Of a stretch of 64,000 nucleotides of DNA, positions 28,230 through 49,051 are shown piece by piece. The stretch is from Bdellovibrionales bacterium (lineage in GTDB: Bacteria > Bdellovibrionota > Bdellovibrionia > Bdellovibrionales > UBA1609): assembly GCA_965219095.1 (NCBI GenBank), contig CBDCMT010000001.1, positions 992,001 through 1,056,000 of the forward strand, written 5' to 3'. Each line of letters starts with the position of its first letter. Position 1 is the first letter of the stretch. Below the pieces are notes generated by a model. It was not told where the DNA came from, did no database searches, and saw nothing but the letters and a program-made list of their open reading frames with translations. The position numbers were made by a program, and so were the translations under genes.

Positions 28230-29186
28230 ATGGCAACGGCAGAACAAATTAAAACTTTAATAAAATCACATCTTCATAATGAAAATGATCGTTTTTTAAC
28301 AACAGCATTACAGTTAGCTGCTTATGAAGCTCATAGGGGACATACAACGCTTGCTCGCGAAATCCGTTCTATTATAGATGATAAAAAGGTATCTCAGATT
28401 AAAGTTGTTTCTTTTCAAAGAGATTTAAGTGAGTTTGTTATTTCATCAGAACCAAAAACTAGGCTTGTAGATATTATCTTAAAACTAAATCTTAGAAAAA
28501 GAGTAGATAAAGTTCTTAAAGAATATTATCAAAAACATAAGCTTTTGAAACATGGAATGACAAATAGAAGAAAAGTTTTATTGGCAGGTCCTCCTGGAAC
28601 AGGAAAAACAATGACTGCGTCTGTTATCGCAGGAGAATTGAAACTCCCTCTTCATACGATACAGATGGATAAAATTGTGACTAAGTTTATGGGAGAAACA
28701 AGTGCTAAGTTGAGACAGGTTTTTGACACTATTGAGGAATCTATAGGTGTTTTTCTTTTCGATGAATTTGATGCTATTGGCTCTGAAAGAGGAAGGGAAA
28801 ATGACGTTGGCGAAATGAGAAGAGTTCTAAATTCTTTTTTACAGTTTATTGAGAGCGATAATTCTAAAAGCATTATCATTGCAGCTACAAACAACATGAA
28901 ACTCCTTGATCAAGCTCTTTTCCGTAGATTTGATGATATTTTGTATTACAACCTGCCAACTGAAGAAGAAACTATGAAATTAATAGAAAACAGACTGGCA
29001 TCATTTCTTGGAAATCTTAAAGCAGAACATCTTGTCGCTGAAACAAAAAGCCTAAGTCATGCAGAGATCGTTCAAGCTTGCTATGATGCTGTGAAAGAAG
29101 CTATTTTAGAGGACAAAACAACTGTATCAAAGAGCCTTATCTTTCAGATGTTTTCTGATAGAAGGTCAGCTTACAGCAGAAAGTAG
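28230..29186 (+). CDS. ietA: AAA+ ATPase, IetA-like
   Basis: GPPGTGKT, LFDEFD, AATN and LFRRFD motifs. Lies 12 nt upstream of an S8 protease. Confidence 0.8.
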   Translation: MATAEQIKTLIKSHLHNENDRFLTTALQLAAYEAHRGHTTLAREIRSIIDDKKVSQIKVVSFQRDLSEFVISSEPKTRLVDIILKLNLRKRVDKVLKEYYQKHKLLKHGMTNRRKVLLAGPPGTGKTMTASVIAGELKLPLHTIQMDKIVTKFMGETSAKLRQVFDTIEESIGVFLFDEFDAIGSERGRENDVGEMRRVLNSFLQFIESDNSKSIIIAATNNMKLLDQALFRRFDDILYYNLPTEEETMKLIENRLASFLGNLKAEHLVAETKSLSHAEIVQACYDAVKEAILEDKTTVSKSLIFQMFSDRRSAYSRK

Positions 29187-29198
29187 CTTTAATAATTT

Positions 29199-31700
29199 AT
29201 GCCAAAAAAATCTTTTTCTCATATCTTTATTTCCAGACCTACTGAAACTCCCAACTATACTTCTCCAAGGGGAGGCGGAGGAAGTACTAATATCCCAAAA
29301 AGAAATCGCCATCAACATGGCCGTTTTTTAAAAAGAAAGTTTAAAACCCTATGGAAAGAATCAAAAAAAGAAAATGAAAAACTTAAGGCTGTTGGGTTAT
29401 CTGCTAAAAATGGCATCTATGTTGAATTTCAAAGCCAAAACGACTTTGATCTTATAACAAAAAGTTTAGAAAACATTAGTCAGGGTGTCCGTATTTTAAA
29501 CATTCGTGAGGATCACAAAAACGACAAAAAAATAACTTTAGCAACCGTTTATATTCCAAATAATAAAGCTTCATATTTTTTGAAAAAGATAGAGGATTAT
29601 TTAAGAAAAAATACTCCAAACAACTCCCCCAAAAACAAGAATCTCATAAACTCTATTGAAGATATTCGCTTAGCTGTTTTAGATTCTTTTTGGCAGGATA
29701 ATAAAAAATTAATGCCAAGAAACAATCAGGTTGTGGGGTGTGAAGTTTGGCTTAGAGTGAGTTCGATACAGCAAGAAATCTCTGATTTAAATGACTCTTT
29801 TTTTTCTCTTTGTTCTAAATTAAAGATCAAATTCCTTAATGAGCAAAAAATTTCTTTTCCAGAAAGACTTGTTGTTTTAATTCATGCTAATAAAAAACAG
29901 TTGTTAGACTTAATTAAGTCGAGTGATCACATAGCTGAATTTCGTCGAGCTAAAGAGACGGCTAAGTTTTGGCTTGACCAAGAAAATATAGAACAACTAG
30001 AGCGGGTGAGGGATTTAGAAAAGAGGTTATCTATTGATCAAAAATCTAAGATTTCCATTTGTCTTTTAGATACAGGAGTCAATAATGGTCATCAACTCAT
30101 AGCTCCTGTTCTATCAGATGAAGATTGCCATACTGTAAACCAAAAGTGGGGAATTGATGATAGTAATGGTCATGGAACTTTAATGTCTGGCTTAGCTATT
30201 TATAGTGATTTGCAAGAAGCTCTTAGAAACCAAGAAACTGTAAATATTCGACACAAATTAGAATCTGTTAAACTTATTCCGCCCCCTGGGCAATATAATC
30301 GAAGAGACCTATATGGGGATATCACAAAACAAGGCATTAGTGAGGCTGAAATTGCAAAGCCTGAAAATAAAAGAGTTATATGCATGGCTATCACAAGTAA
30401 TGATGATAGAGATAAGGGGAGGCCTTCTTCATGGTCTGGAGCTTTAGACCAGATTACTTCGGGTGCAGAAGATGATAAAAGAAGACTTTTTATTGTATCT
30501 GCAGGTAATATAAAAAATGATGTTAAAGAGTTAAAAAATTATCCAAAGAATAACATAACCAATGCTGTTCATGATCCTGCACAATCTTGGAATGCATTAA
30601 CAGTTGGGGCCTATACAAAAAGAGTTTCGATTACAGATGAAAAATTAAAAGGATACACTCCATTGGCAAAAGAAGGAGAGCTTTCTCCTTTTAGCACAAC
30701 TTCTTGCTCTTGGGAAACAAAAAAGTGGCCTCTAAAACCAGATATTGTTTTAGAGGGTGGAAATATAGCCATTCATCCTAATGAAGACATTTCTGCAGGA
30801 AATGAAGACCTCCACTTATTATCTCTAAGTCACAGGCCTCAAGAAGCTCAATTTAATATTATTAATGGAACAAGTGCAGCCGCAGCTCAAGCAGCTTGGA
30901 TAGCTTCTCAAATTCAGGTTCAGTATCCCAAAATATGGCCCGAAACTATTCGAGCCTTAATGGTTCATTCTGCTGAATGGAATGAATCTATGAAAAATCA
31001 ATTTTGGGATGAAAATAAATCAGATAAACATAACTATAGAAATATATTAAGAATTTTTGGTTATGGAGTCCCTAATTTAGAAAGAGCCATTTCATCGTAT
31101 AACAATAGTTTAACCCTGATTTCTGAACAAGAACTGCAGCCATTTACAAAAAATCAGTCTAGTTATTCAACAAAAGATATGCATTTTTATGAAATGCCTT
31201 GGCCTAAAAAAGAGTTAAGAGGATTCCCTGATAACACTTCAGTTCGATTAAGAATTACACTTTCTTATTTTATTGAACCGGGACCTGGTGAAATTGGCTG
31301 GAAAGACAGGTATCGTTATCCTTCTCATGGATTAAGATTTTCCCTTTGCAATCCTCAAGAAAATAAAAATGAATTCATACAGAGAGTTAATAAGTCTGTG
31401 AGAGATGAAGATTATGATAGCAGTTCAAGTTCATCAGACTCTCGCTGGATTTTTGGCTTTAACAATAGAGATTTGGGATCAATTCACAGTGATATTTGGG
31501 AAGGGCTTGCTCCTGAAATTGCAGAATGTAATTTCATATCTGTTTATCCAACAATTGGTTGGTGGCGAGAGCGTTCTCATCTCAAAAAGTTTGATAAAAA
31601 AGCAAGGTATTCATTAATCGTTTCTCTGTCAACACCAGAAGAAAATGTTGACATTTACACTCCTGTAAGAAATCAAATAACAACTACTGTTCCAATATAA
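29199..31700 (+). CDS. ietS: S8 (subtilisin-like) serine protease, IetS-like
   Basis: Catalytic triad LLDTG, HGT and NGTS, oxyanion SAGN. No signal peptide. Paired with an AAA ATPase. Confidence 0.82.
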   Translation: MPKKSFSHIFISRPTETPNYTSPRGGGGSTNIPKRNRHQHGRFLKRKFKTLWKESKKENEKLKAVGLSAKNGIYVEFQSQNDFDLITKSLENISQGVRILNIREDHKNDKKITLATVYIPNNKASYFLKKIEDYLRKNTPNNSPKNKNLINSIEDIRLAVLDSFWQDNKKLMPRNNQVVGCEVWLRVSSIQQEISDLNDSFFSLCSKLKIKFLNEQKISFPERLVVLIHANKKQLLDLIKSSDHIAEFRRAKETAKFWLDQENIEQLERVRDLEKRLSIDQKSKISICLLDTGVNNGHQLIAPVLSDEDCHTVNQKWGIDDSNGHGTLMSGLAIYSDLQEALRNQETVNIRHKLESVKLIPPPGQYNRRDLYGDITKQGISEAEIAKPENKRVICMAITSNDDRDKGRPSSWSGALDQITSGAEDDKRRLFIVSAGNIKNDVKELKNYPKNNITNAVHDPAQSWNALTVGAYTKRVSITDEKLKGYTPLAKEGELSPFSTTSCSWETKKWPLKPDIVLEGGNIAIHPNEDISAGNEDLHLLSLSHRPQEAQFNIINGTSAAAAQAAWIASQIQVQYPKIWPETIRALMVHSAEWNESMKNQFWDENKSDKHNYRNILRIFGYGVPNLERAISSYNNSLTLISEQELQPFTKNQSSYSTKDMHFYEMPWPKKELRGFPDNTSVRLRITLSYFIEPGPGEIGWKDRYRYPSHGLRFSLCNPQENKNEFIQRVNKSVRDEDYDSSSSSSDSRWIFGFNNRDLGSIHSDIWEGLAPEIAECNFISVYPTIGWWRERSHLKKFDKKARYSLIVSLSTPEENVDIYTPVRNQITTTVPI

Positions 31701-31795
31701 ACAATGGATTCCTTCTTTCCATAAAATCCTCTCCCTAAGAAAAACTTATAAGAGAAATTTAAGCTTGGATAAGACGGTCAGACAACTGAACTTAC
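31701..31795 (-). repeat. Solo IS66 left end including RBS and start of tnpA
   Basis: Reverse complement gtaagttcagttgtctgaccgtc...aaatttctcttataagtttttct matches 3804-3860. Confidence 0.75.
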
Positions 31796-31904
31796 TGCTC
31801 ATCAGCCCAAACCTCAAAGTATTTTCTAGGTATGATTTTCACACTAAAAGTTAGCTTAAAAGTAGTTTTTTTATTTTTTCGGAGATACGTTTTTTCTTGG
31901 TATA

Positions 31905-33041
31905 TAGTGCTTCCGCTTAGGTTTTCCGTTTTTTTTTGAGTTGAGGTCTAGTTTTTATTCTAAGGCCTTGATAAAAAGTCATTTATTTTTAAAAATAGTT
32001 TCATATGTCAGGGTTTCTATCAAAAAAAGAGCGAAAAGATTTACTCTATGAACTATCTCTAGAGAAAAATATTAAATACGTAAAAAGGATTATGACAATT
32101 CTCCATTTAGATAAAGGTGAGTTGTGTAAAGATATTTCCCGTTTTCTTTTCATTGATGAGGGCACGATAAGAGCCTGTAGAGATCGTTATAACAAAGGTG
32201 GGATAGAGTGCTTAATCAACGACAATTACAACCCTAAAAGGTCCTTTTTAACTAAAAAAGAGGAGAAAATGCTTTTAAAGGAGTTAGAAAAAAGAATTTT
32301 TCCGTCATCACAGTCTGTTATTCAGTTCATTGAGGAGAATTTTGGTGTTACGTACTCAACAAGTGGTGCGATTGATCTTCTCCATCGCCTTGGTTTTTCT
32401 TATAAAAAAGCCACAGCGATACCGGGTAAGGCAAAGAGAGAAGAGCAGAAAAAGTTTGTGCGTAAATACAAGAGAATTAAAAAGAAAGACGGTCCTGTTT
32501 ACTTTGCTGATTCCACACATCCTGAGTGGGGCCCTACGATTTCATATGGTTGGATAAGAGAGGGTAAGAAGTTTGAAGTGAAGACCAATTCAGGCTGGAG
32601 AAAAAGAGTGAATGTTTGTGGAGCTATTGAGATCAATAGTTTGAAGACGGTAGTCAGGAGTTATAAGACAGTTAACCATGTTTCCATATGTGATATGCTC
32701 CATCATATTCGCAAGAAGCATCCCGATGAAAAAGAGATTCATCTTATCTTAGATGGGGCCGGATACAATAGATCGAAGTCTGTCAAGAAGTTAGCGAAAG
32801 AGTTGAATATAAAACTTGTTTATCTTCCTCCGTACTCACCGAATTTAAATCCTATAGAAAGACTTTGGAAGTTTATGAAAAAAGAGGTCACGGCGAATCG
32901 ATATTATGAAAACTATGACGATTTCAAGGGAAGTTTAAGTCAATTTTTTAGAGGAATACGAAAACACAGATCTAAATTAGAAACTTTGATAACTGATAAC
33001 TTCTCTATCTTAGGAAACTGAAAACCTAAACGGAAGCACTA
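31905..33041 (+). mobile_element. IS630-family element
   Basis: IRs tagtgcttccgcttaggttttc / gaaaacctaaacggaagcacta, with TA duplicated on both sides. Confidence 0.92.
32005..33021 (+). CDS. IS630-family transposase
   Basis: LHRLGFSYKK, ILDGAGY and LPPYSPNLNPIERLW motifs. The first catalytic motif reads FADS. Confidence 0.93.
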   Translation: MSGFLSKKERKDLLYELSLEKNIKYVKRIMTILHLDKGELCKDISRFLFIDEGTIRACRDRYNKGGIECLINDNYNPKRSFLTKKEEKMLLKELEKRIFPSSQSVIQFIEENFGVTYSTSGAIDLLHRLGFSYKKATAIPGKAKREEQKKFVRKYKRIKKKDGPVYFADSTHPEWGPTISYGWIREGKKFEVKTNSGWRKRVNVCGAIEINSLKTVVRSYKTVNHVSICDMLHHIRKKHPDEKEIHLILDGAGYNRSKSVKKLAKELNIKLVYLPPYSPNLNPIERLWKFMKKEVTANRYYENYDDFKGSLSQFFRGIRKHRSKLETLITDNFSILGN

Positions 33042-33694
33042 TATTTATCGGTTAAAAATTTGAGCTCATATATCGAAAAATTATTAAAAGTAGTCTCTAA
33101 ATCATCCATATCATTTACATCAGATGGTGATAGCTTGTCTAAAGACTCCTTGTATTGCTTTATTAGAAATTTTTCTTGTGTGCCTGCTATTTTCTGTAAG
33201 TTAGAAATATACTCATTCATAATACTGATTAGATTATCTTCGTTTAATTCACTCTCTTGTTTTGCATGAAAATAATTATTTCTTCTTTTAATAATTTTAG
33301 TAGAAGATTTTTCTAAAGAGTTGTCCTTTTCTGCAATGGTTCGAAATAGGCGAAAAACTGTCTTTTCATTAACTATAGAAAAGCTCGAAGGATGGATCTT
33401 CTCATCGCCTCCTACATACAGATCATTTTCTTCTCTAGAAAACCCACTTAAAGCAATAGAACGCTCCCTCTTCAGGGTATGATCATTTAATATACGGCTT
33501 AATTGATGATAAACTAAGGTCATGTAGAAAAGGTGGAGATAATAGAAAGCCCCCGTATAAATTTCAGATTCTATACATTTTGAAAAGCTTTTTAAATTAT
33601 ATTTTAAATATGTATTAGTTTTGCTATCAGATCTTATAGGAGTAAATTCGCATATTTGTGTTATTAAATTTTCCAAAACTACTTTGAATTCCAA
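33026..33694 (-). CDS. Putative HEPN-like protein (RNNYFH, RxxxxH), C-terminus clipped by IS630
   Basis: Predicted helical protein overlapping the hsdMS stop. Removing IS630 restores ...KYTKKKRISEKIKKLLLS* ending at 31851. Confidence 0.6.
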   Translation of the reverse strand: MEFKVVLENLITQICEFTPIRSDSKTNTYLKYNLKSFSKCIESEIYTGAFYYLHLFYMTLVYHQLSRILNDHTLKRERSIALSGFSREENDLYVGGDEKIHPSSFSIVNEKTVFRLFRTIAEKDNSLEKSSTKIIKRRNNYFHAKQESELNEDNLISIMNEYISNLQKIAGTQEKFLIKQYKESLDKLSPSDVNDMDDLETTFNNFSIYELKFLTDKYSASV

Positions 33695-36162
33695 ACTTCT
33701 TCTATTTTTTTCTTAATTTTATTTTCGTTTATTTCGATTAGTTTTTTACAAGAACTGACACAGTCTTGCTCTTTTTCAATTTCAGCGACAATTTCTTTTT
33801 GAACTGAGAGAGGAGGGAGGGGGATTTGGATTTTTTCTAAATTACCTTTTGTTATATGGACTAAGCCCACTCCTCCATGTAAATTTTTTTCAACTTCAGA
33901 AACAACTTTTTTTAAGGATAAGTGTAAAAATTTTCTTATATACTTTGAAGAATGTTCAACCTTAAAAATATGTTGGTTCAATATCCCCATACCTTTATCC
34001 CATATATGAGAACCAAAGGAAGTTCCTTTTGAGCCAGACCATGAAAACAAAAGATCTCCTTTGTTGACTAGATACGTATCGTCAATTTTCTTAGAATAAT
34101 AATTGAAACTTGCATTAGGATTATTTAAATTCTGAATCCTTATTATAGGGATTCCAGATTCACTTTCTTTTTCCCAATCTGATGGCTTGAATGCCTTTCC
34201 ATTTATAAAATTACAAACATCCCCCAACTTCACCATAGGCCATTTGGGATCAATTTTAAAAGTCGGTTTCCAGTTTTCAACAACCTGTTTTGCACCATCA
34301 ATAATTTTTTGATAGCCGTCAATTTCAGCGACAATTTCTTTTTGGATTGAGAGAGGAGGGAGGGGGATTTGGAATGGGGATAGGTTTTGTCTAGTAATCT
34401 GAGGTTGTGCTGAACCTGAAATTATTTTAGATAAATCAGCTTCTATCAAGAGGTTAAATATAAATTTTTTATTTAACTCCTTTTCTTTTATTGGTTTTAT
34501 AACCATAGCATTACCAGTAATCCAAGATTGCTTTTCAGAAATATTGATATTTCCACAAGTTGCACCCCTACAAGTAACCAAAACCTCACTTTCTTCGTGA
34601 TTATATTTATCATATTTGCCAATAGGACCATTAGCACCAAAGACGACATATTTTCCAGACGAACTCATTTCTTTTTGCGAGATTGTTTTTGGTTGATAAA
34701 TCTCACACACATCCCCCAGCTTCACCATAGGCCATTTGGTAACAACCTTTTTCTGTGGTCTATAGAGATTCCCACTTAAATTCCAACTTCCTTCATCAAT
34801 AATCTTTTTCTTCTTACACCAAAAAGAAACCTCACTCTTTTCTTTGTTCTCCTTAGACCAAGATTTTAAAACTCGAAAAGCTTCTGGCAAATCATTTTCA
34901 TCAATCTTTCTTCGAGTAGCTCCAAGTTCAAAGCCATCATTTTGTACGTTCACAAATAAAATCTCATCGGACTTTTTAGCTCTTTTTCTATCTAAAAACA
35001 AAATAGAAGTTTTAACACCACTATAAGGCTCAAACACTTTAGCTGGAAGACTCACTACAGCCCAAAGGAAACTCCTTTCTACAAGCATTTTTCTTAAAGC
35101 CTTGTAAGCTTTGTCTGATTTAAAGATAATTCCCTCCGGCACAATAATACCTGCTCTTCCATTTAGCTTTAAGTGCTCTGCTATGTAATCTACAAATAAA
35201 ACTTCTGAGCGATTGGCTCGTACTGAAAACCTATTATGTGGCCTAATACCTCCTTTAGGCGTCATAAAGGGAGGGTTAGCTAATACGACATCAAAATCAT
35301 TTCCCCAACGATTATCACTTGTTAAGGTGTCGTATTCAAAAATTTTAGGCTCTTTAAACTTATGAAGGTACATATTAACTAATGCAAGCTTTACCATATC
35401 AGGAGATATATCATAACCTTCAAAGTTTTTCTGTAACTGTTTTCGCTCACTCAGCTTTAGCTTTTTACCTTCGTATCTGCCATTACTTTGAATTTGAATA
35501 GATAAACCGTCGTTTTCACTTCTTTCAAAACTGTGTTCAGGTTTTTTTGGATCATAATTCCTAGAGTTATTTTTAACAATATGTTTATAAGATGAAATTA
35601 AAAACCCTCCTGTCCCACAAGCTGGATCAAGCACTGATTCATTTTTCTTAGGATCTAAAACCTCCACAATAAAGTCGATAATATGTCTTGGCGTCCTAAA
35701 CTGCCCTGCATCTCCTTGGCTTCCTAAAATAGAAAGTAAATACTCAAAAGCATTGCCTAAATTTTCACTGTCATCATAGCTAAACCAGTCAATTTCTTTT
35801 AGGAATAAGCTTAAAGTTTCTGCATCTCTATAGGGGAGAAAAGCATTTTTAAAAACGTCTTTAAAAAGAGAGGGCAGTGTTTTATGTGTAGGGATTTGGT
35901 TAATAGCTTGAATGTAAAGATCAAGTCGTTCTTGGCCTGATAGCTTTTTTTCAATAATTTTAGGCCAACTGTATTTTTTAAACTCCCCTATAAAATAGGA
36001 AGCGTTTCCTCCATTCTCTCTAGACTCTTGATCTATGTCGTCCATAAATTTGTAAATTAAAGCTGTGGTAATTTGATCCACTTGAGCTTTGGGGTCGGGG
36101 ACTTTACCTACAAGGATGTTTCTCGCAGAGTCTATTCTTCTTTTTGTTTCTTGATCTAACAT
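33679..36162 (-). CDS. hsdM: Type I restriction-modification fused methyltransferase-specificity subunit (HsdM-HsdS)
   Basis: GQFRTPR, DPACGTGGFL and NPPF, followed by two TRDs bounded by duplicated KWPMVKLGDVC and QIPLPPLSxQKEIVAEI. Confidence 0.92.
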   Translation of the reverse strand: MLDQETKRRIDSARNILVGKVPDPKAQVDQITTALIYKFMDDIDQESRENGGNASYFIGEFKKYSWPKIIEKKLSGQERLDLYIQAINQIPTHKTLPSLFKDVFKNAFLPYRDAETLSLFLKEIDWFSYDDSENLGNAFEYLLSILGSQGDAGQFRTPRHIIDFIVEVLDPKKNESVLDPACGTGGFLISSYKHIVKNNSRNYDPKKPEHSFERSENDGLSIQIQSNGRYEGKKLKLSERKQLQKNFEGYDISPDMVKLALVNMYLHKFKEPKIFEYDTLTSDNRWGNDFDVVLANPPFMTPKGGIRPHNRFSVRANRSEVLFVDYIAEHLKLNGRAGIIVPEGIIFKSDKAYKALRKMLVERSFLWAVVSLPAKVFEPYSGVKTSILFLDRKRAKKSDEILFVNVQNDGFELGATRRKIDENDLPEAFRVLKSWSKENKEKSEVSFWCKKKKIIDEGSWNLSGNLYRPQKKVVTKWPMVKLGDVCEIYQPKTISQKEMSSSGKYVVFGANGPIGKYDKYNHEESEVLVTCRGATCGNINISEKQSWITGNAMVIKPIKEKELNKKFIFNLLIEADLSKIISGSAQPQITRQNLSPFQIPLPPLSIQKEIVAEIDGYQKIIDGAKQVVENWKPTFKIDPKWPMVKLGDVCNFINGKAFKPSDWEKESESGIPIIRIQNLNNPNASFNYYSKKIDDTYLVNKGDLLFSWSGSKGTSFGSHIWDKGMGILNQHIFKVEHSSKYIRKFLHLSLKKVVSEVEKNLHGGVGLVHITKGNLEKIQIPLPPLSVQKEIVAEIEKEQDCVSSCKKLIEINENKIKKKIEEVWNSK

Positions 36163-36171
36163 AATTAAAAT

Positions 36172-38697
36172 TTAATCCATATAAGTATTTAATGTCACAT
36201 AGTTTTTTACATACTCTGGGACTTTAGTCTGCCACTTAGTGTTGCCATTTAATGCCTTGAAATCCGTCATGCTAAAACCTGTGTAGTTGTGGAGATCCCC
36301 ATATTTCTTACTATCAATGATTTTCCTAAATTCACTATCTACAATATAAACACTCAAATAATTCTTAATAGGGAGAACGTGCTGATTTTCTGGCTTATAA
36401 ATAGAGACAAATTTCTCACACTCATCTTCTAAAAGTTCTTCTCTAGTTGGAAAACGATCAATAAAGCCAAAAGTTCGCTCTAAAACCTCTTTCCATGAAA
36501 GCCTTCTATCTAGATTTTCAGATATTCTTATCTTCTCTAAATTCAAATAAAGCTCTGGTTTATCCTCGTATTCATATCTTACAATATTTTCTGCCACTTG
36601 CCAATTCTCCTCTTCAACAGCCTTTTTGATTCGATTATCATTATAAAAAACCTCTTTAGCCTTACCCCATAATTCTCTATCAACTTTCATGCCAGCCTCA
36701 CCTACCTGTATTTCAGAGATAGTGCTTATTTTGTCCGGAACATGGATTTCAATCTCATCTATAGTTATGGGAGGACTTTCTTCTCCACTCCCGGCTTCTG
36801 CAGTTAATTGAGGTAGCTTTAAAGCTTCATCATAATTAAATTTTTCTTCAAAATACTCACAATTGGCAAAAAAATCAAAGAGTTTAAATTTTTCCTTTTC
36901 TATTTGGTGTTTTTTCTTGTTCTTGTCCTCATATTTAAATACAAACTTTCTCGTTCCTCGTCCTTTCATTTGCACAAAGTTAGTTGGAGAAAAAATTGGT
37001 CTCATTAAGCAGAGGTTTAAAATGTCTTGGCAGTCATAACCTGTTGTCATCATGCCTACTGTGACACAGACTCTTGTTTTACTGGTTTTATAGCCCTCTA
37101 AAAATTCTGTATAACCACTAAGTTTGTTGTTGGCAAAAAGAATAGTGTTTTGTTGAGAGTTTTCTGTATCAGAAGTGACTTGTCTAGCAAAATCTGAGTT
37201 GTATTTATCAGGCCACATCTTTTGAGCCATTTGATTTAAGATATGAGTGATTTTAGAAGCATGTTTTTGACTTACACAAAAAATGATAGATTTGCCAATT
37301 TCACCACTTATAGGATCTTTCAAGGCCTCTTCAAGGAAACTTTTACAAAAGACAATATTCGTTTTCTCGGAAAAGAACTTTTTCTCAAAATCCTTATTAA
37401 AAAAGGCTTGTTCTTCTTCACCCTCAGTATTTTCTATTTTAATGCTATATCCTTTTTCTGATAAAAGCTTTGTAGTAATTTCAGTTCTTGCATCGACAAC
37501 TATGGGGTTGATAAGATAGCCTTCGTTAACTCCGTCAACAGGACTATATTTAAAAGTAGGCTCACTGTTTTCACAGCCAAAGGTTGTATAGGTATCAAGC
37601 AAGAGTCTTCTCTCCCATTTTCTTTGGTCTTTTTCTGAAAGCTCCAGTTTATCTACATTTTTTAAATAGTCACGAGGAGTAGCGGTTAACCCCAACTTGT
37701 ATCCAATAAAGTACTCAAAGACAGAGCGACTGTTTCCGCTCATAGAGCGGTGAGCTTCATCTGAGATCAAAAGATCAAAGTCTGTTGGGGAAAAATGTTT
37801 CTTGTACTTATCCCCAGTTAAGAGGCTTTGAATTGTTGAAACAACAATTTCTGTTTTATTCCAATCGTCTTTATTTTGTTTATAGATTACACATTGGTAA
37901 TCTTTTTTTAAGTAATCTTGAAAATTTTTATAGGCTTGATCTTCAAGTTCTAGCCTATCTACTAAGAAAAGTACTCTTTTAGCATTTCCTGTTCTCAAAA
38001 AAAGTTTAATAATGGCAGCAGAAAGTAGAGTTTTACCTGTTCCTGTTGCCATTTCAAAAAGAAACCTTTGATTTCCTTTTTTTATTGACTCTTGAAGAGC
38101 TTTAACAGCATTTAACTGGTAGGGGCGTAAAATACGAACATTGCCCATTTCACAAATTTCTTTTCTGTATTGTGGATTACTCCAATTTGAATCCGCTAAA
38201 AGCTCAGGTTTCTGAGAAACAGCAATATAATCTTCCTCAACAGTTTCATTATGTAACAACTTAGGATTTGGCTGAAAATTCATTCTGTAAGTTAAAGACT
38301 CTTGGCTTGGAAGTTCTCTTATGATCTCAGGATTTCCTGTTTCTAAATCCCAAAAGTAATGAAGATTTCCATTTGATAAAATAACAAAACGAACGTTGAG
38401 ACCATGAGCATATTTTCTAGCCTGTTCTTTTCCGTCCAATGGATTTTTTTCTTCCTTTTTAGCCTCTAAAACCACAAGGGGAAAATTATTTTCATCGAGA
38501 AGTAAATAATCCACAAAACCATATTTTGTTTTTTCAAAGTCGTTTCCATGAGAAGCAATTTCACTTTGTGTGATTTTAACATTGGGTTCAAGCCTGATAT
38601 TAGCTTTACCATTGTTGTCGTCAGAAAATCGCCACCCTGCTTTTTCAAGGAGTTTGTTAATTTTTATGCGAGATTGGGCTTCTTTTTTGTTGGGCAT
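36172..38697 (-). CDS. hsdR: Type I restriction endonuclease subunit R
   Basis: N-terminal DYLL...LEAKK nuclease motif, MATGTGKT, DEAHRS, LTATP, TTGYD and QMKGRGTR. ATG at 38697, 2 nt after the TIR stop. Confidence 0.92.
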   Translation of the reverse strand: MPNKKEAQSRIKINKLLEKAGWRFSDDNNGKANIRLEPNVKITQSEIASHGNDFEKTKYGFVDYLLLDENNFPLVVLEAKKEEKNPLDGKEQARKYAHGLNVRFVILSNGNLHYFWDLETGNPEIIRELPSQESLTYRMNFQPNPKLLHNETVEEDYIAVSQKPELLADSNWSNPQYRKEICEMGNVRILRPYQLNAVKALQESIKKGNQRFLFEMATGTGKTLLSAAIIKLFLRTGNAKRVLFLVDRLELEDQAYKNFQDYLKKDYQCVIYKQNKDDWNKTEIVVSTIQSLLTGDKYKKHFSPTDFDLLISDEAHRSMSGNSRSVFEYFIGYKLGLTATPRDYLKNVDKLELSEKDQRKWERRLLLDTYTTFGCENSEPTFKYSPVDGVNEGYLINPIVVDARTEITTKLLSEKGYSIKIENTEGEEEQAFFNKDFEKKFFSEKTNIVFCKSFLEEALKDPISGEIGKSIIFCVSQKHASKITHILNQMAQKMWPDKYNSDFARQVTSDTENSQQNTILFANNKLSGYTEFLEGYKTSKTRVCVTVGMMTTGYDCQDILNLCLMRPIFSPTNFVQMKGRGTRKFVFKYEDKNKKKHQIEKEKFKLFDFFANCEYFEEKFNYDEALKLPQLTAEAGSGEESPPITIDEIEIHVPDKISTISEIQVGEAGMKVDRELWGKAKEVFYNDNRIKKAVEEENWQVAENIVRYEYEDKPELYLNLEKIRISENLDRRLSWKEVLERTFGFIDRFPTREELLEDECEKFVSIYKPENQHVLPIKNYLSVYIVDSEFRKIIDSKKYGDLHNYTGFSMTDFKALNGNTKWQTKVPEYVKNYVTLNTYMD

Positions 38698-38699
38698 TT

Positions 38700-39194
38700 T
38701 TACCTTCCAGCTTGTTGAGCCGCTTTTTCGATCCAATCCCCTAAGCTTTGATGACCACTGTCAGTTATCCAGTTATAATAAGAACAACAAGGATATTCCA
38801 GAGTTCCACCATTATTGCTCTTGAAATTCATTGGTGGCTTGCTAAAAGGGTCTTCCCCCTTAGTTGATATATTACCATTTTGATCTTTTACATTATGAAT
38901 GTAAACCCCAAGTAAACCATTTTTTCTATCAAGACTCTTTCTTATTTCATAATTAACATATTGACTCTCAGAAGTACTGGAGCCAATTAAAACACAAGTA
39001 ACAGAAGTTCCTTTCAACTGCTCATCTATCCACTTTTCAATTGCTTCTTCTGTTCCTTTTTTAACCTTCTCAATATCAGAAGAGTCTATAAAGCCTGCGT
39101 TTTCATAGCTTCCTTTAGTAAGCCAGCTATGTCTAACTTGATTTATTCGCCAAACATCATCCCAATCAAAACTAAAAAATACTTTTCTTGCCAT
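38700..39194 (-). CDS. ThsB-like TIR-domain protein (MTH538/DUF1863 family)
   Basis: RKVFFSF, IDEQLKGTSVTCVLIG and YVNYEI (putative catalytic Glu). RBS aggag. Confidence 0.88.
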   Translation of the reverse strand: MARKVFFSFDWDDVWRINQVRHSWLTKGSYENAGFIDSSDIEKVKKGTEEAIEKWIDEQLKGTSVTCVLIGSSTSESQYVNYEIRKSLDRKNGLLGVYIHNVKDQNGNISTKGEDPFSKPPMNFKSNNGGTLEYPCCSYYNWITDSGHQSLGDWIEKAAQQAGR

Positions 39195-39212
39195 TTGTCA
39201 TACTCCTTTTAT

Positions 39213-39635
39213 TTAATAATTTGATTGCATTGTTATGAAGAAAACTAAAAATACAAATAATAACTGACCTATATAGAAAATGTTTAAAGTTAATGAAAAC
39301 ACAGATAAAATCCAATTACATTTTGATTTTTCAAAGTGTTTCGCCACATTCATTTCAAATTCAGTATCTTTTTGCACTCTCACATCATTATAAACTTTTC
39401 GAAATAATCGCTCCTGCCATAAAAAATACCCGTCTAAAATCCAAAAAAATATAACAGGAACAGAAAAAGATAAAATAATATATGGATTTTCCACATCAAA
39501 TCTTGCTATTAAAACAATAGAAGCAACAACCAAGGTCATACTCCAACCTTTTAAAAGAAAAGAGTTATGAGCTATTCGATTGACTACCTTTTGTATCATC
39601 TCTAAATGTCGAACTACCTTTTCTTCTGAATCCAT
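39213..39635 (-). CDS. Small multi-pass membrane protein (HLEMIQ...NSFLLKGW...LDGYFLWQERLFR family)
   Basis: About three hydrophobic segments. Stop lies 18 nt upstream of the TIR start. Confidence 0.85.
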   Translation of the reverse strand: MDSEEKVVRHLEMIQKVVNRIAHNSFLLKGWSMTLVVASIVLIARFDVENPYIILSFSVPVIFFWILDGYFLWQERLFRKVYNDVRVQKDTEFEMNVAKHFEKSKCNWILSVFSLTLNIFYIGQLLFVFLVFFITMQSNY

Positions 39636-39785
39636 AAATAACCCTAACCTCTTTCTTTATACTTAAAATTCTAATAAAAAAGTAGTTCTAATCATTAGAC
39701 ACTCAACATCATTTTGTTGAGACTTTTCTCTAGAAACTGGGAGCCCTCTCATTTTGTAGGAGCATAACATAATTAAAGCATTTTT

Positions 39786-39859
39786 GCCTCCTCAAAAGAA
39801 TCTGTGGATTTCCGGAGGTTCTGGCAGTTTTCCAAGGTTATGATATAAGGCAATTTTTA
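39786..39859 (-). repeat. Solo ISL3 right end
   Basis: Matches 50122-50195 with a few substitutions. Confidence 0.88.
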
Positions 39860-39922
39860 GGAATGGTATTACTCATCCTCTCTCTCATCAAGCTCTTTTT
39901 TAGTCTCCCTTTTTTTGTGCTG

Positions 39923-40561
39923 TCAGTTATTTTGGTTCTCAAAATGTTCAAAGGTTTTACGGCTAAACTTTCCAAAAGTAATGATTTCTGTTCGTGGTAT
40001 AATGACTTCCATATCAATCAAATCAAAGTGGTTTTCATATTTAGGATAATAAGTGTTCCAGACTACCTCCTTTGTTTCTTTTTTTCTGTATCCACTCTTA
40101 AACGGTACTATAGAAATTGTTTGAGACTCATGTCTTGATTTTGGATTTTCTGGATATTTCCATAAAAGACCTTGATAGGTCTTTCCGTTTTTAAGAGTCA
40201 TTAAAACTTCTTTTTTGTCCCATTCAATACATTTTTTATAAAAGTTATCTTGTACTGGTAGAAATATCCACTTAGCAATGAATTCAATTTGAGCTAATAA
40301 TAGTAAAGCAGGCGTAAAAATTAATGATGCAATTAATAATATAAATAATTTCTTTTTTAGCCCCTCAAGACTACATGTTTCCATAATTAATTCAGCAGGA
40401 AGCCAAGTTAAAGCTGCTATCAAAACAAGGGTAAAAATATAAGGCCAGCCTGAAAGATTAACAGCTGTTGCTGCTAATCTTTTAGCAGGCCTATGTTTAT
40501 TATAAAAATGAATGAAAACTATTCCGGGAATAGCCCAAAGAATATTATGAAAGTCTAGCAT
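39923..40561 (-). CDS. Membrane protein with C-terminal Sm-like beta domain (DUF6338-like)
   Basis: Three N-terminal TM segments, then VLMTLKNGKTYQG and PFKSGYR...VIIPRTEI. Confidence 0.7.
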   Translation of the reverse strand: MLDFHNILWAIPGIVFIHFYNKHRPAKRLAATAVNLSGWPYIFTLVLIAALTWLPAELIMETCSLEGLKKKLFILLIASLIFTPALLLLAQIEFIAKWIFLPVQDNFYKKCIEWDKKEVLMTLKNGKTYQGLLWKYPENPKSRHESQTISIVPFKSGYRKKETKEVVWNTYYPKYENHFDLIDMEVIIPRTEIITFGKFSRKTFEHFENQNN

Positions 40562-40567
40562 CTGGTT

Positions 40568-40789
40568 TTATGAGCTTTGTTTTTTTGCAACTGATTTGTT
40601 ATGAGCTCTAATTGCTCGTTGTACTTCGGGATCATTCCAGAGCTCTTCTGCTGTTGGCCAAGGTTCTGCTGCTGTTCCTTTTTTACGGAAAAGCCAGTTT
40701 CCATAACCTAATTTTTGTTTTTTCTCTTTTGTTTTTTGTGTTGGTTTCACCCTATCTTTAATCCTTTTGGCCATAAATAAAAACCTCAT
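40568..40789 (-). CDS. Small basic hypothetical protein
   Basis: Stop lies 6 nt upstream of the DUF6338-like gene, same strand. Confidence 0.6.
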   Translation of the reverse strand: MRFLFMAKRIKDRVKPTQKTKEKKQKLGYGNWLFRKKGTAAEPWPTAEELWNDPEVQRAIRAHNKSVAKKQSS

Positions 40790-43677: not shown

Positions 43678-44201
43678 ATGAAGACACTCATTATCTTAGC
43701 CTCTTTTTTTCTTGTATCTTGCTCTCATTTTTCAAACTCTCAAACCAAAAGAGATGTTTTCAAAAAAGTAGCTTTAAGTATCGTGGTTGGCGGTATTTAC
43801 GGCTCTACTTTGAAAGAAAACAAAAAGAAGAATGTTCTGCTCTTTTCCAGTCTTTTAGGTTTAGGGGTAGGAGTTTATGGTCTTTATCATCTTGATGAAA
43901 GTAAGCAACTTAAAGTCTTAAAAAACAACTTTCAGAATTAAAAGAAACAAAGGGTCTTACTTTTTTAGGGAAAAATAAAGCTCTCCTGCAACAAGGAGAA
44001 GTTCCTTTTTATAAAAAAGGACTTCCTTCTCATTTAAAGCACCTTGTTGTACCCAGCGAATGGAGTCTTTATGAGTTGGAAGAGGAAATAGGTGGAAAAG
44101 AATGGATACAAGTTGAAGTTTTGAAAGTTTTAAAAGGAAATAGGCTTTTTGAGTTAAAGCCTTCAAAAATCAACCCTTATTTACGAAAGGAGATGAAATG
44201 A
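43678..44201 (+). pseudogene. Lipoprotein with glycine-zipper TM pair, frameshifted at an A-run
   Basis: Lipobox LVSC. The ORF stops at 43941 but a shifted frame (KQLSELKETKG...RKEMK*) is open to 44201 and overlaps the pilin ATG as ATGA. Confidence 0.65.
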
Positions 44202-44464
44202 AAAAGCATATAATCTTTATGTTCATTTTAATGATTTGTTTTTGTCTTGAGGCACGAGATTTAGAAGCCAGTTTAAGAGACATCAGTGAGACTGTAAGAA
44301 GTATAGGGATCATTTTAGGTGTTCTTTCTTTTTTGGTTTCAGGAGTTTGTTTTTACTTTTCAAAAAGTACAGGCATAGAGAGGTTTCAATCAGCAGCTGT
44401 AGGAACGCTTATTTTTGCCACCTCATCGACTATTTTTTCTATTATTTTTAATTCATTTAACTAG
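44198..44464 (+). CDS. VirB2/TrbC-like pilin
   Basis: 88 aa with signal peptide and two hydrophobic helices, located upstream of VirB3/VirB4-like genes. Confidence 0.75.
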   Translation: MKKHIIFMFILMICFCLEARDLEASLRDISETVRSIGIILGVLSFLVSGVCFYFSKSTGIERFQSAAVGTLIFATSSTIFSIIFNSFN

Positions 44465-44476
44465 AGGAAGGAAGTT

Positions 44477-44749
44477 ATGCACAGTTCAAAGATATTAAAT
44501 AAGCAGTCAAATTTTTTAGGTCTAAGTACTTCTGATTTTCTTTTTTTAAGTGGGTTTTACATGCTCTCTCAAGCTTTGCTTTTCCCTTTAGGTTTTGAGT
44601 TTTTTGGATTGATCCTTGTTATTCTACTTTTGTTTTTCCTGATTCCTATAAGGTTAAAGTACAGAAAGAAAATTATAAGAAATACTCTTTTTTATCTTTT
44701 TATAAAAATTTTTAAACGAGGATTTGTGAATGTTTATAAAAAAGTATGA
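44477..44749 (+). CDS. VirB3/TraL-like membrane protein
   Basis: 90 aa, FLGLS motif and two TM helices, between the pilin and VirB4. Confidence 0.65.
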   Translation: MHSSKILNKQSNFLGLSTSDFLFLSGFYMLSQALLFPLGFEFFGLILVILLLFFLIPIRLKYRKKIIRNTLFYLFIKIFKRGFVNVYKKV

Positions 44750-46826
44750 GAAACTAAAGGACTACACTTGGCTTTCTAGAGGATTTTTAGGGAAAACCTT
44801 TAAGCTGTGTTTAAAAGATTTTGAAAGCCTTGAGAACGAAAACCTTTACAATTCTATAGAGAATTTTTTAAAGAACTTAAGAGTAGAAGACTACGCTAGC
44901 TTTTCTTTGTTTTCCAGTGTTTCTTATGACTCTAGCTTTGATAACAAGAGGAGAAATGATTTAAAAAAGGTTGGTTTTGTGAAAAAAAGACTTTTTTTCA
45001 ACATCTTCTCTCAAAAGAAAACCCCTCTTTTTTGTAAAAAAAGTGAGATTTTTGAGCAAATGGAAAGCATCAATCAGTTTTCTGATAGCTTTCTAGAACT
45101 AAAGCCTATTTTCATTAAATCCTTTTTTAAAAAACTATTTAATGTTGAAAGGTTAAAACTTGAACCTTTTGGCTTTTCTAACAAAGACGAGGTTTTAGGG
45201 ATTTTAAAACTTCATACTCTTTCTAGCTCTCTTTTAGATTTAAAAAATCTAATTTTTTTAACAGAAAGACTCCCTCTTCCTTTTGAGTATCATATAAAGA
45301 TCAAAAAAATTGATAAGTTCAAACAAAGAGCAAGCCTTTCAAGACAAACTAAGCAGGAGGCTAGAGAGGTCAGTCAAGAGAGTTTTTTACGCTATCAGGC
45401 TACTCAGGAAGCCTTGTGTGATATGGAGCTTAGAGGAAATGATTTTTTTCAGTTTGAGGTGCACGTTGTGTTAAGAAGGGATTCCAAAAGAGTTTTGAGA
45501 AATGACCTTCTTCTTTCTCAAAAAGAACTTACTTTACTTGGTGATTTTCACATGGAAACTGTGGGAGCTTTTTCTTCCTTTTTATCTTTATTACCAGCCC
45601 ATAGTTTCCATGTTCCTTTAATATGTCAGGATAGAGAACTGGGGTGTTTTCTCCCTCTTTTCACAAGAGGAGTAGGAGGGTTTCAAGCCTCAAAATCCTC
45701 TCTTATTTATCACAGAGTTGATCAATCTTTAGATGAATTTAATCCTTTCCACAAGGATTATGATAACTACTGCGGAGTGGTTATTGGAAAATCAGGACGG
45801 GGGAAGTCTGTTTTTACTAATCTTCTTCTTGGCAGTCTTTCTTATGACCAAAGCCTTAAAGTCATTTTGGTTGATGTAAAAGGTTCTTATCAAAAGAGAA
45901 TTAAAGAGCTTGAAGGACAAACTTATAACATATCGGTGGACAAGTCTTGTGCTCTTGACCCTTTTAGACAGCTTACAAACAAAAAAGAAAGTATTGAAAT
46001 CATTTTATCTTTTTTGAAATCTTTAATTGCAGAAAAGCTCTCACCTCGAGAAGAATCAAACCTTGAAAGAAGCCTTATAGAGTACGCAAGCCAAGCTCAA
46101 ACCCCAAGCCTAGAAGAGTTTGTAAAAACATTAAAGAGTTTTCAAAAAATACACATTTTAGAGAGGTGGACTAAAGGCTCTTTAAAAGAAAATATTTTTT
46201 CAAACTCAGACTCCAATTTTGAATTAAAAAATCTAAATTATTTTAACTTTAGTGAAATTATGACAGCTCAAGATAGGGACACCTCTTTAGCTGTCATGTC
46301 GGCTGTGATGAGTGAGTTCTCTCACCAGCTCTTAGAAAAAGAAGATCATGACAAACTCATTTTTATTGTGGATGAAACACCTTTTTTCATTCAGCACTCT
46401 TTTGAGACCTTTAAACTTTTGAGTAAAAACGTAAGAAAGCTTAACGCTTCTCTTCTTCTTATAGCTCAAGTTTCAAGTGATTTGATTTTAGGGGGTGACA
46501 GGTCTCTTATTGACAATAGTGAATTTAAAGTTCTTTTTTCCCTTGATGACCAAGAAAAGGTCTTTCAGCAAAGATTTTCTCTTAGAGAAGAGGAAATGGA
46601 GGTTTTAAAACAATTAAGGACAAAAAAAGGTGAATACTCTCAGTTTTTATTGAAAGACTCACTTTGTTCTAAAGTGGGGTTTTTACGATTAAGTGACAAA
46701 GAGTACATACAAGTCACAACAAACCCTAAAGAGTTTCAAAAACTAAACACTCTTAAAAAAATGTACCCTTTTTATAGTGATGAAACATTATCCCAAGCCT
46801 TTAGATTTTTAGAGAGGTTATCATGA
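44730..46826 (+). CDS. virB4: VirB4/TraC-family T4SS ATPase
   Basis: GKSGRGKS, LVDVKGSY, IVDE and RKLN...IAQ motifs. Confidence 0.88.
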   Translation: MFIKKYEKLKDYTWLSRGFLGKTFKLCLKDFESLENENLYNSIENFLKNLRVEDYASFSLFSSVSYDSSFDNKRRNDLKKVGFVKKRLFFNIFSQKKTPLFCKKSEIFEQMESINQFSDSFLELKPIFIKSFFKKLFNVERLKLEPFGFSNKDEVLGILKLHTLSSSLLDLKNLIFLTERLPLPFEYHIKIKKIDKFKQRASLSRQTKQEAREVSQESFLRYQATQEALCDMELRGNDFFQFEVHVVLRRDSKRVLRNDLLLSQKELTLLGDFHMETVGAFSSFLSLLPAHSFHVPLICQDRELGCFLPLFTRGVGGFQASKSSLIYHRVDQSLDEFNPFHKDYDNYCGVVIGKSGRGKSVFTNLLLGSLSYDQSLKVILVDVKGSYQKRIKELEGQTYNISVDKSCALDPFRQLTNKKESIEIILSFLKSLIAEKLSPREESNLERSLIEYASQAQTPSLEEFVKTLKSFQKIHILERWTKGSLKENIFSNSDSNFELKNLNYFNFSEIMTAQDRDTSLAVMSAVMSEFSHQLLEKEDHDKLIFIVDETPFFIQHSFETFKLLSKNVRKLNASLLLIAQVSSDLILGGDRSLIDNSEFKVLFSLDDQEKVFQQRFSLREEEMEVLKQLRTKKGEYSQFLLKDSLCSKVGFLRLSDKEYIQVTTNPKEFQKLNTLKKMYPFYSDETLSQAFRFLERLS

Positions 46827-47434
46827 CAAAATTTTTCACCCCCTTAATTTTATTATTTTGTCATGATGCCTCTTGTTTTATCGATGCTTTTTTTAAGCCT
46901 GTAGAAAAGGTAGCTGACAAGGCTTTAATTTTAGATTCTCTTTCTGATCTGTTAAACGAGTTAAAGGGTAACAAAGACCTTGAGAAAGAACTCAAGCTTT
47001 TAAGCCAAGACATTTCTGATTTTGAACATGAAGCAAGAAGCTACAAGTACCTTTCAAAAGACCTTAGAAATATCTTAAACCCTTCTTTCAACTCTCTTCA
47101 AAGCCTTCACCAGAAGATCAGATATTCTACAAACTATATGAGAAGAGTAAAAAATTTCAAGAAAAGACTTCTTAACAAGTTCGGATCTTCGTCTTCTGCA
47201 GTAACAGCTAGTGAACAGATGAATACCAACTCTCTTTTGAACGAAACTTTAAGAAATCAGCACCTTTCAGAGATAAGAAGAGAGAGAAAAAGAATCGCTA
47301 AACAAAGACAAAAATTAAAGTCTTTGAGAGATGAAAAACAGTTTTTAAAAAAGCAATTTCACGAGATCAATAGACATTCTAAACATTATGGTTTTGGAGC
47401 CTTCTTTCCTTTTAAGAACAGGAGTGAGAAATGA
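46823..47434 (+). CDS. Secreted coiled-coil T4SS protein (VirB5/TrbJ-like by position)
   Basis: Signal peptide, helical, ATGA overlaps on both sides. Confidence 0.5.
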   Translation: MTKFFTPLILLFCHDASCFIDAFFKPVEKVADKALILDSLSDLLNELKGNKDLEKELKLLSQDISDFEHEARSYKYLSKDLRNILNPSFNSLQSLHQKIRYSTNYMRRVKNFKKRLLNKFGSSSSAVTASEQMNTNSLLNETLRNQHLSEIRRERKRIAKQRQKLKSLRDEKQFLKKQFHEINRHSKHYGFGAFFPFKNRSEK

Positions 47435-48543: not shown

Positions 48544-49051
48544 ATTTGTGTTTTATACATTGATTCTTTCTCTGTTCTTATGGGGCTTTTCTTCAAGCCT
48601 TTACTTAATTTTTAAAGAAGATAGGAGTTTTGTTATAGAAAAAGACTCTCAAGGGTTTTTAAAGATTCTAGGAACTAAAGACCTTTCTTCTAGAAGAGAG
48701 GTGTTTTTAAGGTTGTTTGTCATACTAAGTTTTAACTACGATACAAGTTCTTTTAAAAAGAACCTGTCTATGGCAGGAGAGCTTATGAGTGATGAGTTTT
48801 GGAGAAAAAAGAGAGCTTATTTTCTTAAAGTCTTTGAAGAGGTGAGGATGAAAAAAATCTCTCAATTTGCAGAGATTTCAAAACTCATAGAAACTTCAAA
48901 CAATACTTATAAAGCTCATTTGAACATCATTATCTTTCAAGGCAAACAAAAGACTGAAAAAAAGGGAAAACTTCTCATCAAGCTGCAAAGTGCAGAAATG
49001 AGAGCTCAAAATTTATATGGATTCGAGGTGTATGATGTTCAAATTTTATAG
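48512..49051 (+). CDS. VirB8/TraE-like bitopic protein
   Basis: N-terminal TM, FNYD helix, and C-terminal strand with NLYGFEV (NPxG-like). Confidence 0.65.
   Translation: MRTFLKLIKDEFVFYTLILSLFLWGFSSSLYLIFKEDRSFVIEKDSQGFLKILGTKDLSSRREVFLRLFVILSFNYDTSSFKKNLSMAGELMSDEFWRKKRAYFLKVFEEVRMKKISQFAEISKLIETSNNTYKAHLNIIIFQGKQKTEKKGKLLIKLQSAEMRAQNLYGFEVYDVQIL

Follow-up and report, generated by a model that had tools for sequence, protein, structure and literature searches.

In PrrC, an ABC-type ATPase domain is fused to a HEPN nuclease, and the PrrC gene of EcoprrI is tied to a type I restriction-modification (RM) system that also occurs without it. For PrrC and for the RonA protein of Ronin, the accessible text of a preprint (10.1101/2023.04.06.535777) summarises a model in which the RM complex keeps the protein inactive until anti-restriction proteins free it. 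In that text RonA is a 61-amino-acid (aa) membrane protein tightly linked to hsdM/hsdS in a system described without hsdR, for which caging by HsdMS and release by anti-restriction proteins are proposed. Among the Thoeris systems, type V is described in the accessible text of 10.64898/2025.12.03.692087 as ThsB together with a three-helix protein, ThsF, with a 3'cADPR signal and a predicted heptameric channel, its TIR proteins clustering with those of types I and IV. For type I RM, engineered fusions of HsdM to HsdS are reported to restrict once HsdR is supplied (PMC6158711, from the part of that article that was available).

Here we describe a locus of five minus-strand genes in a 64,000-nucleotide stretch of the 3.1-Mb genome of a Bdellovibrionales bacterium (GenBank assembly GCA_965219095.1, contig CBDCMT010000001.1, positions 992,001 to 1,056,000; this whole stretch is called the window). 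The new element of the locus is a family of predicted HEPN-fold proteins that is tied to RM genes, and the membrane protein–TIR gene pair at the other end of the locus is already catalogued. An earlier note on this DNA, made from the sequence alone, had read the locus as a type I RM core flanked by two further defence modules, and the domain and PADLOC evidence bore out both this arrangement and the individual domain calls: ThsB_TIR in the TIR protein; HSDR_N, ResIII and Helicase_C in HsdR; N6_Mtase and two Methylase_S stretches in HsdM-S; and an RxxxxH motif at R138–H143 in the last protein. The coordinates of the open reading frames (ORFs) likewise agree with the same-strand order and with gaps of 18 nt between the membrane-protein and TIR genes, 2 nt between the TIR gene and hsdR, and 9 nt between hsdR and hsdM-S. 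The five genes are as follows, in window coordinates and in the order of reading.

39213 to 39635, minus strand: gene of the membrane protein, 140 aa
38700 to 39194, minus strand: gene of the ThsB-type TIR protein, 164 aa
36172 to 38697, minus strand: hsdR, type I restriction subunit, 841 aa, with its ATG at 38697
33679 to 36162, minus strand: fused hsdM-hsdS, 827 aa, N6-adenine methyltransferase with two target-recognition domains (TRDs)
33026 to 33676, minus strand: HEPN-fold gene (longest ORF from the first TTG at 33694, 222 aa), its C-terminus clipped by an insertion sequence (IS) of the IS630 family

Based on its residue conservation and its modelled structure, the last gene appears to represent a single-domain HEPN-fold family of predicted RNases that is uncatalogued. 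A word-index search returned no relative of the protein, whereas a full HMMER scan of a 50%-identity library returned 50 homologues besides itself. M58, E110, R138 and H143 were invariant across 37 aligned homologues that share a mean column identity of 19%, and among the homologues taken from the loci described below R and H were kept in 14 of 14 and E in 13 of 14, so that the superfamily motif (Rx4-6H with an upstream Glu) is present and the HEPN-like call of the earlier note stands. Recognition by existing models was weak or nil. RiboL-PSP-HEPN of Pfam matched 4 of the 37 members (best E 4.4e-6), the family passed none of the Pfam or NCBIfam cut-offs (NCBIfam best no better than E 0.01), PADLOC holds no dedicated model for it and gave weak CARF-HEPN matches in one or two of the 37, and PHROGs gave a single weak match in one of five. 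No member matched the PrrC models of PADLOC, Pfam or NCBIfam, none of the 37 matched a P-loop family, and a profile search of solved structures found none related by sequence (best E 0.021, unrelated). The nearest named cluster in the Atlas was AF_1680 (14% and 80% of members), which we regard as a lead only. The AlphaFold2 (AF2) model of 222 aa is all-helical, with a predicted local distance difference test score (pLDDT) of 90.7, and its top structural match was the HEPN domain of AbiA (Z 8.1, root-mean-square deviation (rmsd) 3.8 over 128 aligned residues), with further HEPN proteins at Z 5–7, sacsin, AF_0298, SsR10, LsoA/RnlA, Csm6 and HepT among the matches. Two results weigh against the fold assignment: Z values of this size, that of AbiA included, are also reached by common helical bundles, and no Foldseek match to the model reached E ≤ 0.001. 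No account of a single-domain HEPN family tied to RM genes turned up in a literature search; one could exist in subscription papers or in preprint supplements, the tables of the PDC and Thoeris studies among them.

The linkage of this family to RM genes was apparent in every locus found. Searches with the HEPN query, made without reference to RM, gave seven strong non-self loci: one in 300 genomes (G337), three in 351 (G446, G496 and G755, of which the first two are closely related), one each among 72,556 plasmids and 50,697 phage records, and one on a viral contig. Each of the seven follows an RM gene with specificity domains at its end, either directly or with one gene in between, although the HsdR clade present here was found in only 9/301 and 9/216 genomes and 56/72,556 plasmid records. 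Six follow an hsdR–hsdM-S pair of this clade and one follows a single-chain R-M-S protein. Two weak genome matches were excluded from these counts, namely G183 (E 4e-4, a partial match to a 315-aa ORF with no RM gene nearby) and G506 (E 2.8e-4), and a viral scan with one Spirochaetota HEPN protein found nothing. Conversely, the viral loci that had been selected by RM clade, and in which the slot behind hsdM-S was visible, carried the HEPN gene in 8 of 21 cases (8 of 12 lineages), six times directly after hsdM-S and twice after one further ORF. In total, the HEPN gene directly follows an RM gene, or is separated from it by one gene, in 14 of 14 other loci; in 13 of these the RM genes are of the present hsdR clade. 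A plasmid of a cultured Paracoccus strain (Paracoccus zhejiangensis, NZ_CP025432) holds an intact three-gene copy with the HEPN gene, and Escherichia coli plasmids carry the RM clade without it. The two families have also travelled together for long: pairwise identities of HsdR and HEPN correlate (Spearman rho 0.80, n = 12; 0.75, n = 10 with near kin removed; permutation p < 0.001), and their trees, from which L140, L145 and L164 were omitted, contain the same two main supported clades.

An effector that always occurs with RM genes, which themselves often occur without it, reproduces the pattern of PrrC and RonA, and by analogy the HEPN protein is likely a back-up of that kind. Since it was RM-tied in every locus found, the analogy to PrrC that the earlier note had drawn is strengthened, for the HEPN gene alone. 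The likeness has clear bounds. The genetic tie to type I RM was found in 14 of 14 loci, but the fusion to an ATPase that marks PrrC was not; the present proteins are about 220–260 aa long, have no ATPase domain and are encoded behind a fused hsdM-S. Compared with Ronin, the effector here is a predicted HEPN-fold protein where RonA is, as described, a short membrane protein, and the locus keeps an intact hsdR. What restrains the HEPN protein is most plausibly the RM complex, because the HEPN protein has no ATPase or sensor domain and because no recurring small partner gene behind it was noticed in the opened loci, for which no formal test was made. We therefore tentatively propose, at a strength that falls just short of an even chance, that the family is a dedicated RM-dependent guard of a cross-phylum hsdR + hsdM-S clade, that is, a sensorless analogue of PrrC that would be released by anti-restriction proteins. 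By this analogy the RM enzyme would cut unmethylated invading DNA while the HEPN protein, lacking a sensor ATPase of its own, would be kept inactive by the HsdM-S/HsdR complex; a phage anti-restriction protein that jams the complex would free the HEPN protein, which would then dimerise and cut tRNA or other RNA.

Several observations count against such a guard. The HEPN gene is missing from 13 of the 21 viral loci and from 7 of the 8 other Bdellovibrionales genomes that hold the RM clade, the content of the slot varies between almost identical RM loci (L146 versus L147; L149 versus L151 and L152), one locus (L145) pairs the HEPN gene with the different, single-chain R-M-S protein, and in G446 and G496 an AAA_13 gene stands between the RM and HEPN genes. 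The gene is thus dispensable and its slot variable, and it could therefore be an independent gene that enters the locus by recombination at the conserved hsdS end; the matching trees could follow from linkage alone, and therefore show long co-travel and not contact. The alternative that follows is an abortive-infection RNase that acts autonomously, is set off by a phage protein without involvement of the RM complex and only rides in the slot behind hsdS. It would account for a swappable slot that is occupied by many unrelated defence genes, and for a different stub behind the second hsdM-S copy of the present genome; the fold matches also include HepS (9OIK), a phage-activated HEPN protein of 218 aa, at Z 5.8 and rmsd 5.0. 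An autonomous gene would, however, be expected away from RM genes too, yet none of the seven loci found without reference to RM was of this kind; the TIR pair, which is a truly free module, lies away from the RM clade in every other locus seen; and the HEPN trees track HsdR across phyla. On this evidence we consider an autonomous RNase rather unlikely and retain the RM-dependent guard as our working proposal.

In the present genome the HEPN gene carries an insertion near its end, and the features beyond it are listed here.

31903 to 33043, plus strand: IS630-family insertion sequence, transposase 32005–33021, with inverted ends and DDE_3 and HTH domains
31851 to 31902, minus strand: probable remainder of the HEPN gene, a 3' end of some 17 codons with the stop, displaced beyond the insertion sequence
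28230 to 31700, plus strand: ietA–ietS defence pair, convergent with the operon and a separate system (PADLOC IetA 5e-74, IetS 3.6e-46)

This genome contains 47 matches of over 1000 bp to the element, which interrupts the final codons of the HEPN gene at a TA and encodes the last four residues of the ORF. The tails of most HEPN homologues extend further than that of the present ORF. When the sequence was read through the break, with an X at the joint, and scored against a profile built without the present protein, the best frame added 17 residues and reached 170.3 bits, as compared to 164.4 as encoded and 167.1 and 164.4 in the other frames, a small margin. As judged from these scores, it is probable that the element clips about 17 codons off the gene and that the displaced end lies beyond it. 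The catalytic motif is well upstream of the break, and the loss of the last helix may reduce the activity of the protein in this genome. The public run lists no contig joint across the site, which does not prove that the insertion is fixed.

At the other end of the gene, the start codon had to be reconsidered. The earlier note had given a 16-nt overlap of hsdM-S with the last gene, and this is probably an artefact of calling the longest ORF, since residue 7 of the HEPN protein, at TTG 33676, aligns with the first Met of 9 of the 14 homologues from the loci. This TTG lies 2 nt past the hsdM-S stop and, judging by the alignment, is probably the real start, with a gap of 2 nt between the genes.

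The RM genes themselves constitute an intact-looking type I system, as read from their motifs, of a widespread two-gene clade. HsdR (PADLOC REase_I, 6.7e-60) has the HSDR_N, ResIII and Helicase_C domains and the expected motifs (nuclease motif 62–80, Walker A 217, DEAH 313, motif VI 576), and HsdM-S has, in one chain, an N6_Mtase domain at 132–469 with motifs I and IV kept (DPACGTGGF 179, NPPF 296) followed by two Methylase_S stretches. The features of type I RM, a nuclease and a superfamily 2 motor in HsdR, an N6 methyltransferase and two TRDs that diverge between paralogues, are therefore all present, and the difference from the type is that M and S form a single chain naturally throughout this clade, where the fusions in the accessible text of PMC6158711 were engineered. 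HsdR relatives at 48–72% identity were found in 9 of 301 genomes of the order Bdellovibrionales (eight others besides the present one), in a second phylum (9 of 216 genomes, a set centred on a Salinispira record), in 56 of 72,556 plasmid records (55 enterobacterial, one Paracoccus) and in 22 viral contigs. From an initial 24 viral loci, two were dropped for weak helicase matches (L168, L169), and L154, which ends before hsdM-S, was dropped as well. The arrangement is almost always hsdR followed by the fused hsdM-S, and the fusion occurs in Bdellovibrionales, Spirochaetota, Paracoccus, E. coli plasmids and viral contigs alike. The present genome also holds a second, broken hsdR–hsdM-S copy (G000:C2:1140500-1144547), in which the methyltransferase is 94–100% identical to the first per 50-aa bin and the TRDs only 16–32%; this divergence is the usual specificity swap. 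Behind that second hsdM-S is a stub of 74 codons that by eye resembles the beginning of an IetA-type ATPase and is interrupted by a further copy of IS630.

Turning to the opposite end of the locus, the earlier note regarded the membrane protein and the TIR protein as an unnamed pair, and in this it needs revision. The membrane protein matches the PADLOC model PDC-M50A (E 2.1e-38) and the TIR protein matches PDC-M50B (9.5e-55) as well as ThsB1 (2.6e-59); the genes are adjacent and each matches its own model over almost its full length. The pair is thus almost certainly the PADLOC candidate PDC-M50, to which it adds a further member, and it also fits type V Thoeris. A literature search for the name PDC-M50 found nothing, and the label PDC-M is absent from the main text of the preprint of the PDC set (bioRxiv 10.1101/2024.01.29.577857), the part of that source that was available. 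As compared to that set, the pair lies here upstream of the RM genes and not inside them. The TIR protein belongs to the Pfam family ThsB_TIR (E 1.7e-23) and its nearest solved structure is Bacillus cereus ThsB (6LHY/9B7D, E 2.5e-28). In its YxxxE motif (Y79/E83), E83 corresponds in the alignment to the Glu of B. cereus ThsB and is kept in 36 of 36 partner TIR proteins, all of which have an aromatic residue four positions before it (Y in 19, W in 14, F in 3). Cyclising TIR proteins allow an aromatic residue at this position relative to the catalytic Glu, and this residue is reported to be required for ADP-ribose cyclisation (10.1101/2022.05.07.491051, in its accessible part).

The membrane protein, which belongs to a family with 1405 homologues, has three hydrophobic segments (hydropathy peaks of 1.84, 1.89 and 2.19 in 19-aa windows from residues 25, 53 and 117), and its monomer model shows three long helices at low confidence (pLDDT 66.9). 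No solved structure related to it by sequence was found, and a fold search returned generic helical bundles alone. To examine its neighbours, 80 metagenome loci of the membrane gene were fetched and merged at 90% identity into 61 non-redundant ones. A TIR gene adjoins the membrane gene in 50 of the 61, downstream in 30, upstream in 12 and on both sides in 8, the last being the multi-ThsB layout of Thoeris. The same was seen in 5 of 5 plasmid loci opened, Bacillaceae plasmids among them, and in 4 of 6 viral loci. Within the order Bdellovibrionales the membrane family occurs in 8 of 301 genomes, and of the seven other than the present one, five have the TIR gene, the sixth has TIR genes on the facing strand and the seventh holds a fragment. 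Among the 11 metagenome loci without an adjacent TIR gene, two have a DUF4062 protein and most of the others end at a contig edge. At those two loci (L065:980-3763 and L077:1940-4693) the partner of the membrane effector is a DUF4062-NB-ARC-TPR protein and not a ThsB TIR, which suggests an NLR-like source of the signal. The statement in the earlier note that the pair is without ThsA was upheld: a ThsA of the type I or II Thoeris kind (SIR2-SLOG or TM-Macro) is absent from the neighbours on both sides of the TIR gene, and no SIR2, Macro or SLOG match was obtained in the 30 window ORFs scanned, the remaining window ORFs and the rest of the genome being outside the scan.

A ThsB-type TIR that adjoins a small effector with three membrane helices, without ThsA and often with several TIR genes per effector, corresponds to type V Thoeris as described in the accessible text of 10.64898/2025.12.03.692087, in our literature search the only preprint that names ThsF. 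We consider it likely that the pair is a type V system (ThsF + ThsB), and its 140-aa membrane protein is probably the effector ThsF. By analogy with type V, infection would lead the TIR protein to convert NAD+ to 3'cADPR, and in response to this cyclic ADP-ribose signal a ring formed by the three-helix protein would open and damage the membrane, so that the cell would be killed or stalled. The difficulty is that ThsF is labelled DUF2270 in that text and the present membrane protein has no DUF2270 match at E ≤ 0.05; among 64 of its relatives, two match, weakly (best E 0.046). No DUF2270 members were available for a profile comparison (0/151 and 0/251 genomes, 0/13 further records or genomes). 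The missing DUF2270 match may count against type V. It would suit another Thoeris type with a different signal, either type IX or one of the unverified types with a transmembrane effector from the same preprint, whose accessible text counts 29 putative types, several of them with transmembrane effectors, and the nearest Atlas family of the membrane protein, 8xMP at 0.87, points the same way. Given that the three helices, the wide spread and a TIR closest to the ThsB of type I all fit the description of type V, we judge another type to be unlikely.

The earlier note had not recognised the combination of the five genes as a named system and had held that variable, unrelated genes around homologous RM loci would refute it. 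For the five-gene set this is what was found. Cargo around hsdM-S in relatives includes DarT-Macro, SIR2 + HerA, Ymh, ApeA-HEPN, DUF3644, AAA_13, OLD-type, STAND and IetAS genes, and the pair is absent from the RM locus in all 8 other Bdellovibrionales genomes with the HsdR clade, in all 22 viral loci of the clade and in both plasmid types opened. The RM tie of the HEPN gene, as described above, is the part of the proposal that survived. Conversely, HsdR, HsdM-S and HEPN had no BLAST matches in the 80 membrane-gene loci. It is important to note that only 13 of the 61 non-redundant loci have 3 kb on both sides, and RM genes near the membrane gene are therefore under-sampled, and that an unrelated type I RM system lies close to the pair in one viral locus and one genome (L179 and L123); both points temper the conclusion. 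The slots of the RM clade are a defence hotspot in which the TIR pair is a lodger, and the five genes are very probably three separable modules. A single integrated system, with the RM enzyme guarded by the TIR pair as well as by the HEPN protein, is rejected because RM relatives carry varied cargo and none the pair, and we regard it as highly improbable: the gaps of 18, 2, 9 and 2 nt on one strand favour it, as does a public-run contig that spans the membrane gene, the TIR gene and most of hsdR without differences (probably source data and not independent), but the five-gene set occurs in none of the other loci just counted, and G236, which holds both the HsdR clade and the pair, has them about 40 kb apart.

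Two further kinds of cargo were observed in the slots. A single-chain fusion of DarT and Macro of about 400 aa is present within or just after the RM clade in five Bdellovibrionales genomes (L103, L105, L106, L107 and L108), four of these being confirmed by Pfam and L107 by eye. In L158–L160 and L167, the slot after hsdM-S holds a ThsB-type TIR gene with unannotated neighbours of 255 and 243 aa and without the present membrane family, perhaps another Thoeris type.

As for the surroundings of the operon, cotranscription of the five genes is inferred from their spacing alone; scans for promoters (36 versus 26.6 ± 6.5) and terminators (4 versus 4.6 ± 2.1) were at chance level. Beyond the end of the HEPN gene lie the convergent ietA–ietS pair and then an HNH gene. 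On the side opposite to ietA–ietS, VirB4-like genes are located 5 kb from the operon, and the IS-dense region at 44198–49051 of the window contains a VirB4/TraC-like gene and small pilin-like ORFs; it is probably a decaying conjugative element that carries the defence island. Two different short dispersed repeats flank the operon, at 39775–39860 and 31708–31795, with 114 and 27 genome matches of at least 70 bp, and are possibly miniature inverted-repeat transposable elements or remnants of IS ends. Upstream on the same strand (39923–40789) are a membrane-like ORF of 212 aa and an ORF of 73 aa that match no family; a second copy, 95% identical, is present at C2:1240577-1242268, and a homologue lies near the RM locus of G236.

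Taken together, the explanation that we favour on balance, with moderate confidence, is a stack of a type I RM system, a Thoeris-type pair and an RM-linked back-up that is predicted to be a HEPN RNase. To our knowledge, few back-ups that fire when restriction is blocked have been recognized, namely PrrC, PARIS, retrons and Ronin. The RM clade to which the HEPN family is linked ranges over Bdellovibrionales, Spirochaetota, Paracoccus and prophages and, if the proposal of an RM-dependent guard is true, a minimal HEPN protein without a sensor, attached to one RM clade, would be the simplest guard that fires upon blocked restriction.

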